Shown: in pieces, positions 1 to 13,521 of the stretch
Layout: each line of letters starts with the position of its first letter
Position numbering within the stretch: position 1 is the first letter of the stretch
Translations under genes and position numbers: made by a program
Notes under the pieces: model-generated
What the model was told of the DNA's origin: nothing
Databases searched by the model: none
What the model saw: only the letters and a program-made list of their open reading frames with translations
Assembly (NCBI GenBank): GCA_052168235.1
Contig: JBQLZK010000042.1
Coordinates: 1 to 64,000 of the forward strand
Reading direction: 5' to 3'
Length of the DNA stretch: 64,000 bases
Source: Thainema sp.
GTDB taxonomy: Bacteria; Cyanobacteriota; Cyanobacteriia; Phormidesmidales; Phormidesmidaceae

Positions 1-54
1 TATTAGCTTGCTTTCCTGATTAGATAAACTTATCACTATAATGTCAGAAGAGCC

Positions 55-10241: not shown

Positions 10242-11369
10242 TCACAAGAAATGAACAAATGCAGAATCTTTATATGTAGAAGAACCGGATAAATTTAGTC
10301 CTAATAAAGATACTATATAATCTGCTAAAACGTCTTTATGATTGAAGCTTGTACTGTTTCTATCTCTGTTTAAAATACGTGCTACGCTGCCAATAAACAA
10401 GTCTGATAATTGAATATAAAAGTTTTCTTCTGACTCAACAGCTATCAACTGCTTAAGGGTAGCTTCATTCTCAAAATGATTGTTAAAGGCAAGCTGTAGA
10501 TCTTGCTCCAGTCTCGCCATCTCTAACTTATCTGTTCCATCTTCTTGATCCTTATAGATATTGACATGCCTAGGTAAGGTTAAACGTTTAGTTTGTACTT
10601 CATGTTTTATTCCTATATGAACAAGATGATAGTGTAGTTCTCGAATGATTTCATTGATGCTTTTACGTGTTCCAGCTTGTTCAAGAGCTACAGCTTTAAA
10701 ACTAAAAGTGTCAAAGTGACTAAGAGCTACAGTGAAAAATTCCTTATATTCTTCCAGCCTATTTTTGCTCAGTTTAGAAAAATGAAACTCATATGAAAGA
10801 CCCTTTTTCTTTTTCCATTGAGTCAAATTAACCAAGAGTTTATAAGATTGAACATCGCCCGGACTACACAACCCACCTACAACTACATATTGTCCATTCT
10901 TGCTACTTTCATCTATATAAAAGCTTATTTCTGGAATATCAGGTGGCTTGTCAGCTACTTGCTTATTCCTTTCATCCTCTTCTCTATTTCTTCTGTGTTT
11001 TCTAACCTCTGTGTCTGCCAGAAAGAGCTTATATTCGTTCTGAATCTTTGCACGTGCTCTTGTTAGGGATGTAAGCTTTGTAAGTTTTTGCATTCTCTTT
11101 TCATCAATTAACCCAGATCCAGCATGTTCAGGCTCAAAAACCTTCCAGAATCGCCATGCCAATGCGTTATCTGAGTTTCGTGCATCAGGGTAATGGTTTA
11201 AGATGAAAGCTACTTTTTCTCGTAGACCATTTAAATTTGATTCTGCTAATTTATTGAGTAATATTTCTCGTTCTCGCTCAATCTTATGTTCTTTAGCTAG
11301 CTGTACCGAATTTTCTACGGGAATGTCTAGCTGAACAGAATCAAGAGCCTTTGATTCTCCTTTAGTCAT
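10242..11369 (-). CDS. DUF3800 domain protein with an extra N-terminal helical domain
   Basis: FYIDESS, EFHF and IQLSDLFIG motifs typical of DUF3800; visibly AT-rich; no HIP1 sites seen. Confidence 0.75.
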   Translation of the reverse strand: MTKGESKALDSVQLDIPVENSVQLAKEHKIEREREILLNKLAESNLNGLREKVAFILNHYPDARNSDNALAWRFWKVFEPEHAGSGLIDEKRMQKLTKLTSLTRARAKIQNEYKLFLADTEVRKHRRNREEDERNKQVADKPPDIPEISFYIDESSKNGQYVVVGGLCSPGDVQSYKLLVNLTQWKKKKGLSYEFHFSKLSKNRLEEYKEFFTVALSHFDTFSFKAVALEQAGTRKSINEIIRELHYHLVHIGIKHEVQTKRLTLPRHVNIYKDQEDGTDKLEMARLEQDLQLAFNNHFENEATLKQLIAVESEENFYIQLSDLFIGSVARILNRDRNSTSFNHKDVLADYIVSLLGLNLSGSSTYKDSAFVHFL

Positions 11370-11534
11370 GGTTCCCAGATTCTAATACTTGAATTGAAAT
11401 ACATTCTAGCCAAAGATTTGAAGTAGTTGCCATATCTGTAGGTTTGGTTAGATGGCAAAATTCCGTTGTTCAGTTGACGATGGTTTTGGACTAAAATTGC
11501 AGCAAAATTGCAATCGCAACTCTCGCAAATCTTG

Positions 11535-11560
11535 TAGGTTGGGTTGAAGAATGAAACCCA
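11535..11560. repeat. REP-like hairpin
   Basis: GTAGGTTGGGTTgaagaatgaAACCCAAC; a degenerate copy starts near 11438. Confidence 0.55.
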
Positions 11561-11598
11561 ACAATTCCTTTCACTCTATTTCTATCGGCGAACGGTTA

Positions 11599-11627
11599 TT
11601 GACTCCACAGGCCAGATACCGTACTGT
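11599..11627 (+). promoter_or_regulatory. Sigma70-type promoter
   Basis: TTGACT-17 nt-TACTGT, directly upstream of the structured leader. Confidence 0.65.
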
Positions 11628-11633
11628 GAAACG

Positions 11634-11830
11634 TTAAGTTGCTGTAGTAGAGCACAACTCGTGCAGCAGCCACCAAAAATCTAGCCAAACGCGACCCAGA
11701 GTTGCTGCAACAACATCTGAGCCGCTAACCCCCGGTTGATGATGGCAACGCGGAGGCTTGAGGGATTATAACCTTCTCTAAAGCCACCTTGCATTGCGCT
11801 GCACGAATGCGGGGTGGCTAGGTTTTTGGC
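11634..11830 (+). ncRNA. Putative structured leader or small RNA with alternative pairings
   Basis: Hairpins at 11691-11725 and 11782-11819; long-range complementarity between 11659-11667 and 11798-11806, and between 11673-11687 and 11815-11829. Confidence 0.5.
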
Positions 11831-11864
11831 TTTCCTCAGAAAGTCAAACCCACAGGAGAACACA

Positions 11865-12149
11865 ATGTCATATCTCATTCACGGTGCTGCCTCCGATGCA
11901 GCACCACAGTCCGGTGCGCCCACTTTCGGCCAAAACCTGCGCGACAATCGCCATCCCCTGCGGCTGATCCTGCTCGGCTCCCGCCCCGACATCATCATCA
12001 CCATCAAAAACCTGCATCGACGCGGCTTTGCCGAAGCCAACGAATGGAGCCATCCCATCCCCTGCCCCAGCGCCGGAGATGTCGCCCGCATCCTCGCCCA
12101 GCGCCATCCCGATGATCACATCAGCATTCTGACCCGCTACTTAAACTGA
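11865..12149 (+). CDS. Small cyanobacterial hypothetical protein (LxGS...I..LH..GFAE..EWS...SILTRY type)
   Basis: AGGAG RBS at 11854-11858, ATG at 11865, 94 aa. The motif resembles a multicopy cyanobacterial family of unknown function. Confidence 0.7.
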   Translation: MSYLIHGAASDAAPQSGAPTFGQNLRDNRHPLRLILLGSRPDIIITIKNLHRRGFAEANEWSHPIPCPSAGDVARILAQRHPDDHISILTRYLN

Positions 12150-12178
12150 TTGCCCACCACTCCCTCTCCCGCTCTGGG

Positions 12179-12341
12179 CTACCGTGTACACACATCTTGA
12201 TCACTGTCTTTCAACCCCGTAATAATCCCCCCTTGCCTCCCTTAAAAAGGGGGAACTTTGAGTCAATTTCCCCCTTTTTAAGGGAGGCAAGGGGGATCTC
12301 AACGTTGAAACGGAGTCTAGAGACTTGTGTGTACACAGTAG
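12179..12341. mobile_element. 163-bp MITE with terminal inverted repeats and an 11-bp target-site duplication
   Basis: TIRs CTACCGTGTACACACA and TGTGTGTACACAGTAG; CCCGCTCTGGG lies directly on both sides (12168-12178 and 12342-12352); long internal palindrome. Confidence 0.85.
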
Positions 12342-12388
12342 CCCGCTCTGGGAGAAGGAGCTGGGGGATGAGAGGCAAGTGAAGCGAA

Positions 12389-12667
12389 TTAACGTTGCGA
12401 TCGCACAATGGCCTGTTCCAAAGCCACCTGATCGAGTTCAGTAATTACAAATACTTCCTGCGTCGTTTTGCCCTTGCGAGCGATCAGCTTAAATCCACCC
12501 GGAATCGGCACCGACACCCGAATGCGCAACTGAGGCGCATTCGATCGCGTCCGACTCAGCACCGCAGGCGTGATTGTCCGAATCCCATCTTCATCGACCA
12601 GTCGCTCCAAAACGGGAATCAGTCCAGGCAGATGAGTTGAATGATTCCAAACGAGCCGTCCTGTCAT
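12389..12667 (-). CDS. DUF2103 domain protein
   Basis: GRLVWNHSTHLPGLIPVL...GGFKLIARKGKTTQEVFV. Confidence 0.85.
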   Translation of the reverse strand: MTGRLVWNHSTHLPGLIPVLERLVDEDGIRTITPAVLSRTRSNAPQLRIRVSVPIPGGFKLIARKGKTTQEVFVITELDQVALEQAIVRSQR

Positions 12668-12675
12668 AAATCCCC

Positions 12676-13005
12676 CTACGCCTTTTCGAGTGGAGCCATC
12701 GTCAAACCCGCCCGACTAAGCTGCTGATGATACAGCTCAGCCTGCTCCAGTGGCCCCACCCAAACCGTTGCCTGTCCTTCATTGTGGACTTGATGCGTCA
12801 AATCCCAAGCTCGGTCGCTGGTCATATTGGGGATATATTTCACCAGGCATTCCGCCACATGCTGAAACGTGTTGAAGTCATCATTCAGCACGATCACCTT
12901 GTAGTTTGGATAGGGCTTCTTGACAGTTTGACTTGTCTTTTCAGGAGTCACCACTGGCGCACCCGACGCCGCATGAGGTGCGATCGCAGTTTCTATCGTC
13001 ATCAT
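12676..13005 (-). CDS. clpS: Clp protease adaptor ClpS
   Basis: YKVIVLNDDFNTFQHV...VHNEGQATVW...AELY. Confidence 0.92.
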   Translation of the reverse strand: MMTIETAIAPHAASGAPVVTPEKTSQTVKKPYPNYKVIVLNDDFNTFQHVAECLVKYIPNMTSDRAWDLTHQVHNEGQATVWVGPLEQAELYHQQLSRAGLTMAPLEKA

Positions 13006-13267
13006 GAAAGCCACGTCAAAATCAACAAAACTACATTAAAAAAATCTAAACCATATTACTTTAGTGTACTGACTTCCCCTCCGCTCTATCAACGACTACT
13101 AGTTTGCCAATTTAGTTTGGCCACTTTATTTGGCTGATGATTAGCCCTCCAAGTCGCGCATTGCAAGAGATTACAGGCTTCAAACCCGCTCAAATAAAAA
13201 AGGCATCCCGCCCCCGCAGAATGCCCAATACTTAGATGTTCTCTAGATCGTCTCAATCGGTACTCTT

Positions 13268-13475
13268 ATACGCAATCCGGTTAAAACCTGATGATTTATT
13301 TTTTGTGAAAAGCTGGCTAAGCAAGCCTTTCACAAAAACAAATTGGGTTCTGATACACTCATATCTTCCACTTTGCACTTTGAGAACCCGAAGAGATTGT
13401 TTTGCCGCCGCGATGCGGCGGCAAAACAACCCTTCTGGGTTTTGGTGCAAGATGTAAGATACACGGACTTGATAT
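13268..13475 (+). repeat. Family A repeat (copy 2) with a nested family B palindrome (13359-13457)
   Basis: Outer element ATCCGGTTAAAACC...GGACTTGATAT. The inner element ends GGTGCAAGATGTAA and is flanked by GATACAC on both sides. Confidence 0.75.
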
Positions 13476-13521
13476 TACAAAGCACTCTCAAGTTCCCACG
13501 CGGAGCGAGCCAGCCACGCCA

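Follow-up and report, generated by a model that had tools for sequence, protein, structure and literature searches.

We found that the region at about 11580-12149 of a 64,000-nt stretch of DNA from Thainema sp. (contig JBQLZK010000042.1, forward strand; "the window" means this whole stretch) is one copy of a self-contained cassette of about 570 bp, which combines a promoter of its own with a structured 5' leader RNA and a gene for a small protein of 94 amino acids (aa). The leader, a genuine cis-leader RNA that is both conserved and uncatalogued, is linked to a family of small proteins that has no name, and that it is a conserved structured leader of this family of open reading frames (ORFs) is the part of our interpretation that we hold with high confidence. 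The fuller statement, that this is a new cis-regulatory leader RNA acting on translation through competition between its closing helix (P1) and a sequestor of the ribosome-binding site, seems to us, taken as a whole, to have somewhat better than an even chance of being correct. An earlier note on this DNA, made from the letters alone, had proposed an RNA-controlled and possibly multicopy module here; in this it was right, whereas its pairing scheme and its analogy with phage antisense RNAs turned out to be wrong.

The features of the window copy are as follows.

11580..11598, + strand: upstream edge of the unit, a conserved block with the consensus TTCTGTCAGTGAACCTGTA, directly before the -35 element
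11599..11627, + strand: sigma-70-type promoter candidate, TTGACT (11599-11604), a 17-nt spacer and TACTGT (11622-11627)
11638..11670, + strand: P0, a 5'-terminal hairpin in minimum free energy (MFE) folds, variable in length and sequence, whose 3' arm holds segment A of the earlier note (11659-11667)
11673..11686, + strand: 5' strand of P1 (segment B of the earlier note), from an inverted repeat and covariation
11691..11725, + strand: P2, a three-segment hairpin with internal loops (the central hairpin of the earlier note), from the MFE fold and compensatory changes
11726..11731, + strand: J2/3, the conserved single-stranded junction UAACCC (family consensus GCUaACccC from 74 distinct distant leaders)
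11732..11753, + strand: P3 hairpin, from folding, covariation and mutual information
11755..11785, + strand: P4 hairpin, with the conserved loop GAUUAUAAC in the window copy, from folding, covariation and loop conservation
11786..11815, + strand: P5 hairpin (the second hairpin of the earlier note), whose loop has a conserved UUGC motif and, in the window copy, also segment A' (11798-11806)
11816..11829, + strand: 3' strand of P1 (segment B' of the earlier note), from an inverted repeat and covariation
11825..11848, + strand: 3' hairpin with the core CUUUC/GAAAG at 11830-11843, extendable to UUUGGCUUUC/GAAAGUCAAA, in which form it has UUUGG in common with P1
11854..11858, + strand: Shine-Dalgarno (SD) sequence AGGAG, read directly, 6 nt before the ATG
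11865..12149, + strand: ORF of 94 aa with its ATG at 11865, a member of an unnamed family of small cyanobacterial proteins

The promoter, the A/A' and B/B' segments, the hairpins, the ATG and the 94-aa ORF that had been described before were all found where they had been placed, the central hairpin as part of the MFE fold. Helices P3 (11732-11753) and P4 (11755-11785) did not figure in that description. An in-frame GTG at 11814 was rejected as the start of the ORF because paralogues have indels between the GTG and the ATG, and a terminator scan found no terminator-like site within or after the leader.

The 237-nt leader folds to -84.6 kcal/mol (z = -3.68), and one of 200 shuffles folds as well. 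Between 11590 and 11870, an inverted-repeat finder returned exactly three pairs: B with B' (11673-11687 and 11815-11829; 15 nt, 93% complementary), the two arms of the last hairpin (11782-11795 and 11806-11819; 14 nt, 86% complementary), and A with A' (11659-11667 and 11798-11806; 9 nt, 100% complementary). The B/B' pair is P1, a long helix that closes around the four hairpins P2-P5 in a nested five-helix domain of about 160 nt (11673-11829). This pairing has held up: it is retained in 12 of the 12 aligned leaders of this genome, with changes that are wobble-compatible only, and it covaries in distant relatives. Conserved unpaired nucleotides across the 74 distinct distant leaders are located in the junction and in the loops of P4 and P5. 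The U and the A of the P4 loop are nearly invariant across the family, and the UAACCC of J2/3 is invariant within the own group. The arms of P0 covary among paralogues (alignment pairs 15-45 and 16-44), and a hairpin is found at the same place in distant loci.

Since MAFFT alignments of distant and own leaders misregister P1, the covariance model (R1) was built from an own-group alignment instead, by drawing the five-helix structure on 17 leaders from this genus, with no distant sequence inside. Of 100 distant loci, 80 gave an R1 match on the strand of the ORF (E <= 0.011); another three matches, with E > 0.3, were considered spurious. When these distant leaders are aligned to R1, 87.1% of the cells are paired, compared to 68.2 +/- 0.5% in shuffles (none of 500 shuffles equals the real value), both-sided changes are seen in 35 of the 39 pairs, and compensatory cells number 463 versus 137 +/- 10. 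Sliding the 3' partners lowers pairing to 35-53%. P1 (helix 1 of the model) is 90.4% paired, with 12 of its 14 pairs changing on both sides; P3 (helix 5) is 98.2% paired, all four of its pairs occur as two or three pair types and they are among the top mutual-information pairs; P4 (helix 6) is 92.8% paired; and P5 (helix 7) is 84.9% paired, with changes on both sides in 7 of 7 pairs. Compensatory changes in P2 (helices 2-4) are also seen in a structure-independent MAFFT alignment.

A MAFFT alignment of 22 leaders, which was not fitted to the structure, shows compensatory changes in 13 of the 23 predicted pairs. An unbiased scan of the 74 distinct distant leaders by mutual information with average product correction (MI-APC) placed 18 of the 45 top listed pairs, including 9 of the 10 highest, in the proposed structure; the remaining ones are mostly neighboring or same-helix columns, and the scan gave neither a pseudoknot signal nor long-range covariation outside the nested fold. 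RNAalifold preferred a long-range helix that joins GCAA on the 3' side of P3 to UUGC in the loop of P5; this helix was not adopted because its pairing is near the shuffled level (66.6% versus 63.8 +/- 0.8%) and the bases are invariant; a tertiary or alternative contact between the two is possible. Forward-strand scores are 143-181 bits, against 16-25 bits on the reverse strand, and G-U pairs are frequent; therefore, the fold is an RNA feature of the + strand.

The pairing of A with A' fared differently. When the leader was shuffled 1000 times with its dinucleotides preserved, 8% of the shuffles contained a perfect inverted repeat of at least 9 nt, and an A/A'-like match is present in only 4 of the 16 copies from the genus, namely the window copy and three close relatives (L002, L018 and L037, with 8-9 bp). 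Two of the 16 do not have the A arm altogether, and in none of them does the duplex between the P0 region and the core of the P5 loop beat shuffled loops (the fraction as good ranges from 0.08 to 0.93). As a meaningful pairing, A/A' is thus at chance level and absent from 12 of 16 genus copies. The earlier note had argued that the order A-B...A'-B' cannot be nested and that the pairings must be pseudoknotted, mutually exclusive or in trans; the argument for a pseudoknot or for pairing in trans falls, since A/A' is at chance level and mostly unconserved while B/B' is the nested P1, and the top MI-APC pairs are all nested. The duplicated AGCCACC, with two copies said to compete for the same partner, does not extend beyond the window copy either, since its 5' copy is window specific and other copies read GGATACC, GCTACC or GGACACC there. 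What does stand is the covariation of B/B' in leaders of homologues (A/A' does not covary) and the existence of mutually exclusive pairings, which occur in most relatives but engage the ribosome-binding site and do not go through A/A'.

Distant homologues of the ORF in other genera carry a recognizably similar leader. Within the taxonomic family, R1 has matches in 41 of 61 genomes, which represent 15 of 19 genera, at 1-23 copies per genome; across the class, it has matches in 34 of the 151 genomes sampled, which belong to 9 of 34 families. A homologous ORF lies 3' of the RNA in 79 of 80 distant cases, 29-247 nt away (median near 41 nt). For loci taken from other cyanobacterial families, 10 of 10 have a small homologue of the ORF 3' of the RNA on the same strand. 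One subfamily (L021, L039, L032, L023 and L043, in genomes G023 and G008) has a long additional hairpin, some 110 nt in size, that separates P1 from the SD, with an RNA-to-AUG spacing of 100-165 nt versus the usual 35-50 nt or so. Two distant ORF homologues (L034 and L035, in G024 and G002) have no leader RNA and were seen by eye to lie directly 3' of a helix-turn-helix regulator-like gene, an arrangement that may represent an alternative, protein-based control of the ORF family.

Within the genome of the window, we found 12 full-length copies of the cassette, including that of the window, and four more cut by contig ends, all 72-83% identical (BLAST and genome search); R1 gives 13 matches in this genome. 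The module is thus multicopy, as had been suspected, with a conserved promoter, a structured leader and a small gene in its repeated part. Homology extends from about 20 nt before the -35 element to the stop codon and then ends abruptly. In an alignment of 11 full copies with their flanks, conservation begins at 11580..11598 and the sequence further upstream is unalignable; BLAST places the copy boundaries at about 11577-11599. Mean identities over the 55 pairs of these 11 copies were as follows.

Promoter block: 0.908
Leader: 0.778
Codon positions 1 and 2: 0.896
Codon position 3: 0.684
Four-fold degenerate sites: 0.722
100-nt upstream flank: 0.56 (shuffled control 0.548)
100-nt downstream flank: 0.55 (shuffled control 0.548)

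In conservation, the leader is roughly on a par with the coding sequence, and the copied segment is the unit and nothing larger. Codon positions 1 and 2 are more conserved than position 3, and therefore the ORF is under purifying selection.

Neighboring genes differ at every copy. The ORFs flanking the window copy and nine further copies of this genome (20 proteins) are of DUF3800, ClpS, ClpP, LysR, GST and KAP NTPase types, that is, cellular or defence-island types. In the window, a DUF3800-family gene (10242-11369, - strand) is divergent from the cassette; genes for KAP-family P-loop NTPases flank two other copies (L002 and L013, on contigs C2 and C11 of this genome, G000), and DUF4238 and DUF3800 genes flank two others. 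KAP NTPase, DUF4238 and DUF3800 genes are typical of variable or defence islands. Short repeats were also seen next to the units. Directly 3' of the window ORF, at 12160-12360, there is a palindromic repeat of about 200 bp that resembles a miniature inverted-repeat transposable element and has dozens of genomic copies, with relatives located 3' of several other cassette copies. Just 5' of the cassette, at 11523-11570, is a repeat of about 45 nt with a GGGTT...AACCC hairpin and at least 10 genomic copies, which is also present, intact or degenerate, at four other cassette copies (C2, C26, C28 and C34).

Comparison with a congener (G001) shows that the complement of copies changes. The copy on contig C61 is orthologous between the two species (93% identical, with a colinear downstream flank), and the flanks of the C28 and C36 copies are present in G001 with no adjoining unit. 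At the C36 copy, homology with G001 stops within about 10-15 nt of both unit edges. G001 also has a conserved DUF2103-ClpS flank without the adjoining DUF3800 gene or the cassette, which marks a variable region. The orthologous and the missing copies, with breakpoints at the unit edges, therefore indicate a turnover of copies whose edges are as sharp as those of the unit. G001 offered no clean empty site, the C36 flanks lying there on two different contigs, and no dispersal mechanism is visible at the turnover sites between the two species. The arrangement around C36 is reciprocal: G000 has flank A, unit and flank B on C36 (L007; 1407-1471 and 2051-3270) and the segments X1-X2 on C78 (25003-25821), and G001 has flank A joined to X2 and X1 joined to flank B, with no unit (L138 and L139, on contigs C15 and C125).

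The window protein and three or four distant members have no match in Pfam, NCBIfam, PADLOC or PHROGs, and the ESM Atlas returned unnamed cyanobacterial clusters only. A word-based search found 42 relatives, and a profile of 23 members run against 1.84 billion representatives (50% clustering) found 760 proteins at E <= 1e-3, 208 of them at E <= 1e-10; the best 150 of these 760 are 61-185 aa long. The relatives are all annotated as "hypothetical protein" in the sources checked. Among their carriers are Leptolyngbya, Sphaerothrix, Alkalinema, Nodosilinea, Oculatella, Phormidesmis, Leptothoe, Tildeniella, Trichocoleus, Almyronema and Phormidium tenue. An AlphaFold2 model (102 sequences; mean predicted local distance difference test score 77.9) has a compact beta-alpha-beta-beta core and a disordered and variable N-terminus (residues 1-20), and Trp61 is invariant in the family. 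A Foldseek search against the PDB gave nothing at E <= 1e-3, and in a wide VIA-align comparison the best Z was 4.1, none reaching 5, with generic split beta-alpha-beta folds (PII, CutA and the E2 DNA-binding domain); these weak matches were not used for functional inference. Considering that the codon-position identities indicate purifying selection, the protein probably has a cellular role.

The promoter block is conserved beyond the paralogues. Of 71 distinct distant loci, 50 have TTGACN-16..18-TANNNT 5' of the RNA, and none has it on the reverse complement; with a looser -35 element, the pattern is found in 62 of 71, versus 0 or 1 on the reverse complement. The spacing from the pattern to the RNA domain is 28-56 nt in 49 of the 50 pattern-bearing loci and 7 nt in the remaining one, and the gap is occupied by the covarying hairpin P0. 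A consensus promoter scan did not call TTGACT-17-TACTGT, since the -10 element TACTGT agrees with TATAAT at only 3 of 6 positions. A transcription start near 11634 is plausible, considering the conservation of the block in paralogues and distant loci and that P0 fills the gap. Metatranscriptome contigs from three biofilm samples of one study match relatives of the cassette at 85-95% identity, from 5' of the promoter into the ORF; such contigs give no start, strand or level and may stem from DNA carry-over, and they are not counted here as evidence of transcription. A set of 23 RNA runs contained 8-18% of the sampled sequence words.

The leader would act in cis on translation of the downstream small gene. 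In most distant leaders, the 3' end of P1 (typically GUUCUG) runs into an anti-SD segment (GUUUCC or UCUUCC; UUUCC). Together they form a hairpin of 10-13 bp with GGAGAC...CAGAAC that ends 1-6 nt before the AUG, and the alternative partner of GUUCUG is a CAGAAC at the extreme 5' end of the domain. An SD window with at least six paired bases is found in 69 of the 74 distinct distant leaders, pairing of the P1 3' end with the region from -25 to +3 in 50, and both in 46. In the distant leaders (n = 79), the SD has a median unpaired probability of 0.13. Ensemble calculations for 54 leaders showed the pivot segment paired predominantly downstream in 32, predominantly with the 5' end in 5, and in a mixed manner in 17. 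The calculated default would thus be the state with the SD buried (off), and a stabilized full P1 would free the ribosome-binding site (on): the 3' bases of P1 pair either with its 5' end or with the SD region, and therefore whatever stabilizes the full P1 should release the SD. The effector could be a metabolite or the encoded small protein. The exclusive link of the RNA to one protein family favors the protein itself, and the junction-rich architecture equally suits a small ligand. In this proposal, the confirmed part comprises the conserved and covarying fold, the RNA-ORF link, the multicopy distribution with sharp edges and, in silico, the alternative pairings; we infer from them the transcription start, the switching, its direction and its effector.

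Several points weigh against this reading. Twenty-eight of the 74 distant leaders do not combine a paired SD with a P1 3' end that pairs near the start codon, and about 15-20% of the homologous ORFs examined have no RNA (20 of 100 loci, a few of which may owe this to truncation at contig ends). The segment of P1 that toggles is some 14 bp away from the junction, unlike typical riboswitches, where the pocket for the ligand is directly beside the helix that switches. The RNA invariably stands before a single protein family, so that the gene context gives no clue to a ligand. The covariation counts obtained with R1 come from an alignment fitted to the model, which inflates such counts, a concern that the structure-independent MAFFT alignment and the MI-APC scan address. 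The transcript, the switch and the ligand are argued from sequence, the metatranscriptome data being contigs only. Last, in the genus of the window, P1 is without the CAGAAC/GUUCUG extension and is followed by a hairpin whose loop has 4 nt (CUUUC CUCA GAAAG), a new SD (AGGAG) lies downstream of this hairpin, and GGCTTTCCT is invariant in 11 of 12 own copies. Constrained folds of the window copy differ little (full P1, -87.8 kcal/mol; extended hairpin, -85.4 kcal/mol; anti-SD:SD, -84.9 kcal/mol), with SD accessibilities of 0.46, 0.50 and 0.31, respectively, and the mean unpaired probability of the SD is about 0.47 in the window copy, with a median of 0.56 in 11 own copies. The modeled states are within 3 kcal/mol of each other and the SD is about half open, and hence the switch is not evident in this copy. 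Its 3' hairpin is a remnant of the SD-sequestering hairpin of its relatives, reduced in the subfamily of the window, and with this hairpin shrunk and the SD largely exposed, the window copy is probably regulated more weakly or in a different manner.

Two narrower forms of translational control by competition between P1 and the sequestor differ in the effector. One possibility, which we regard as credible but decidedly short of even, is that the balance between P1 and the sequestor is set by the small protein, or by one of its paralogues, when bound to the P1-P5 domain, each cassette being a self-tuning RNA-protein pair, as in the leaders of ribosomal proteins. The nearly exclusive position of the RNA before this protein family (79/80 and 10/10) fits it well, exclusive RNA-gene linkage being typical of protein-binding leaders, and so does the co-divergence of RNA and protein into subfamilies, the group of the window having a distinct protein insert, P1 and platform. 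The protein is also small, with a compact alpha/beta domain and an invariant Trp, but it belongs to no known family, and fold matches that are weak and generic lend no support to RNA binding. A similar case is the rpsF leader bound by S6:S18, described as a structured 5' leader found only before the gene of its presumed binder (PMC3895269). Like our element, it is exclusive to one gene and occludes the ribosome-binding site; unlike it, ours is multicopy and diverged into subfamilies, and the protein is nonribosomal with no known RNA-binding domain. Slightly less probable still is a metabolite- or ion-sensing riboswitch, in which a ligand at the P1-P5 junction would stabilize the full P1 and open the SD. 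The leader does contain an aptamer-like domain with a covariation-supported fold, in which a multihelix junction, conserved unpaired nucleotides and strong covariation come, in most relatives, with a platform that overlaps the closing helix, and it occurs in many copies per genome, as is true of some riboswitch classes. However, the controlled genes share no metabolite or pathway, being one unnamed family with differing neighbors, there is no ligand to propose, the bases that switch lie at a distance from the junction, and the platform is degenerate in the subfamily of the window. Glutamine riboswitches (the glnA RNA and the Downstream-peptide motif) also precede small cyanobacterial ORFs in several copies per genome. 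The gifB 5' untranslated region, for instance, is presented as a cis-acting glutamine-riboswitch leader of a cyanobacterial small-protein gene (PMC6212724). Our leader shares with these a structured cyanobacterial cis-leader, a small protein gene and several copies, but it is about three times larger, with five helices, no pseudoknot signal, a different protein family and no Rfam match. The yjdF motif, outlined in PMC4793209 as an orphan riboswitch candidate tied to one uncharacterized gene family with a ligand that is hard to guess, is alike in being almost exclusive to one such family but differs in its fold, its phylum and the absence of our pattern of up to 23 pairs per genome with the whole cassette, promoter included, repeated.

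The remaining alternatives depart further from control of translation in cis. That the cassette is chiefly mobile or selfish, with an RNA that serves spread or maintenance (as a recognition or guide RNA or an addiction module) over host regulation, seems improbable to us. The dispersed copies with sharp ends and unrelated flanks are what is expected of a transposable element: internal four-fold sites are 72% identical and the flanks are at the shuffled level, neighbors differ at each copy, copies have been gained or lost between congeners, four copies lie at contig ends (assembly breaks), and other short repeats often abut them. Nevertheless, the 94-aa protein, the only ORF of the unit, has no transposase, recombinase, nuclease or reverse-transcriptase domain nor a match to any other catalytic family; the alignment of the copies, judged by eye, showed neither terminal inverted repeats nor target duplications; the copies are old, since they are only 72-83% identical, and at least one is orthologous between species; and the protein is under purifying selection. 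Least probable by far is the model of the earlier note, an antisense or attenuation module like those of P4 CI and P1 C4, with A-A' and B-B' pseudoknotted or paired in trans. P4 CI and P1/P7 C4 are structured RNAs encoded upstream of the genes that they control, and this position is the only likeness, as here the helices are intramolecular and nested. Those RNAs belong to prophages and, once processed, work as antisense RNAs on targets in the transcript that they come from; the layout here is that of a 5' leader acting in cis, with a platform that sequesters the SD. The perfect 9 bp of A/A' in the window and the 8-9-bp versions in L002, L018 and L037 speak for the model, but chance can account for A/A' (8% of shuffles), 12 of the 16 genus copies do not have it, two of them having no arm for it, and it does not covary in distant relatives, and B/B' is simply a nested helix that closes the domain. 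The transcript holds no conserved repeats that could serve as complementary targets (none of the 16 copies beats shuffled loops), and there is no Rfam match and no prophage or satellite context, the ORF having no PHROGs match and the flanks no phage genes but cellular or defence types. The comparison of copies has thus already largely refuted it.

An exact match to an Rfam family, which would have made this a described element, was looked for and none was found, and the leaders of homologues proved to be conserved and covarying. A cmscan search of 10500-13500 of the window against Rfam 15 (E up to 10) gave, within the leader, only a 14.6-bit chance match to snoU89, and the same search with 11 distant loci (E up to 1) gave two unrelated weak matches. 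The leader is therefore outside every Rfam 15 family, including the C4 antisense RNA, the glutamine riboswitch, HEARO and the DUF3800 RNA motif. Elsewhere in the window, matches to miRNA families at 12227-12296 are artefacts of the palindromic repeat, and a DUF3800-V RNA match inside the DUF3800 gene (E = 7.9) is not significant. A full-text literature search found no description of this RNA or protein. A recent CMfinder screen of 202 cyanobacterial genomes (Geissler et al., Nucleic Acids Research 2026; PMC12873609) reported 409 novel conserved RNA structures (CRSs) and was limited to intergenic regions beside 931 KEGG-annotated orthologous groups. Those CRSs are, like our leader, cis-regulatory cyanobacterial structures, but our ORF family has no annotation; since the screen covered only KEGG-annotated neighborhoods, overlap of the leader with that catalogue is unlikely.

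What is new here is a covariation-supported structured RNA of about 160 nt that is absent from Rfam, together with a large family of small "hypothetical" proteins, and the RNA is a candidate for either a new riboswitch or an autoregulatory circuit of RNA and protein, which can be tested directly. The sharp edges and the turnover of the cassette raise the question of how a 570-bp unit that has no transposase disperses. A more far-reaching idea, which we advance only as a speculation with the odds well against it, is that the leader is the aptamer of a new riboswitch-like class that senses a metabolite or its own protein and travels on a self-dispersing cassette. If this were true, thin filamentous cyanobacteria would hold, in each genome, batteries of as many as about 23 sensor-effector pairs that diverge together, and this system, whether regulatory or selfish, would have no described counterpart.

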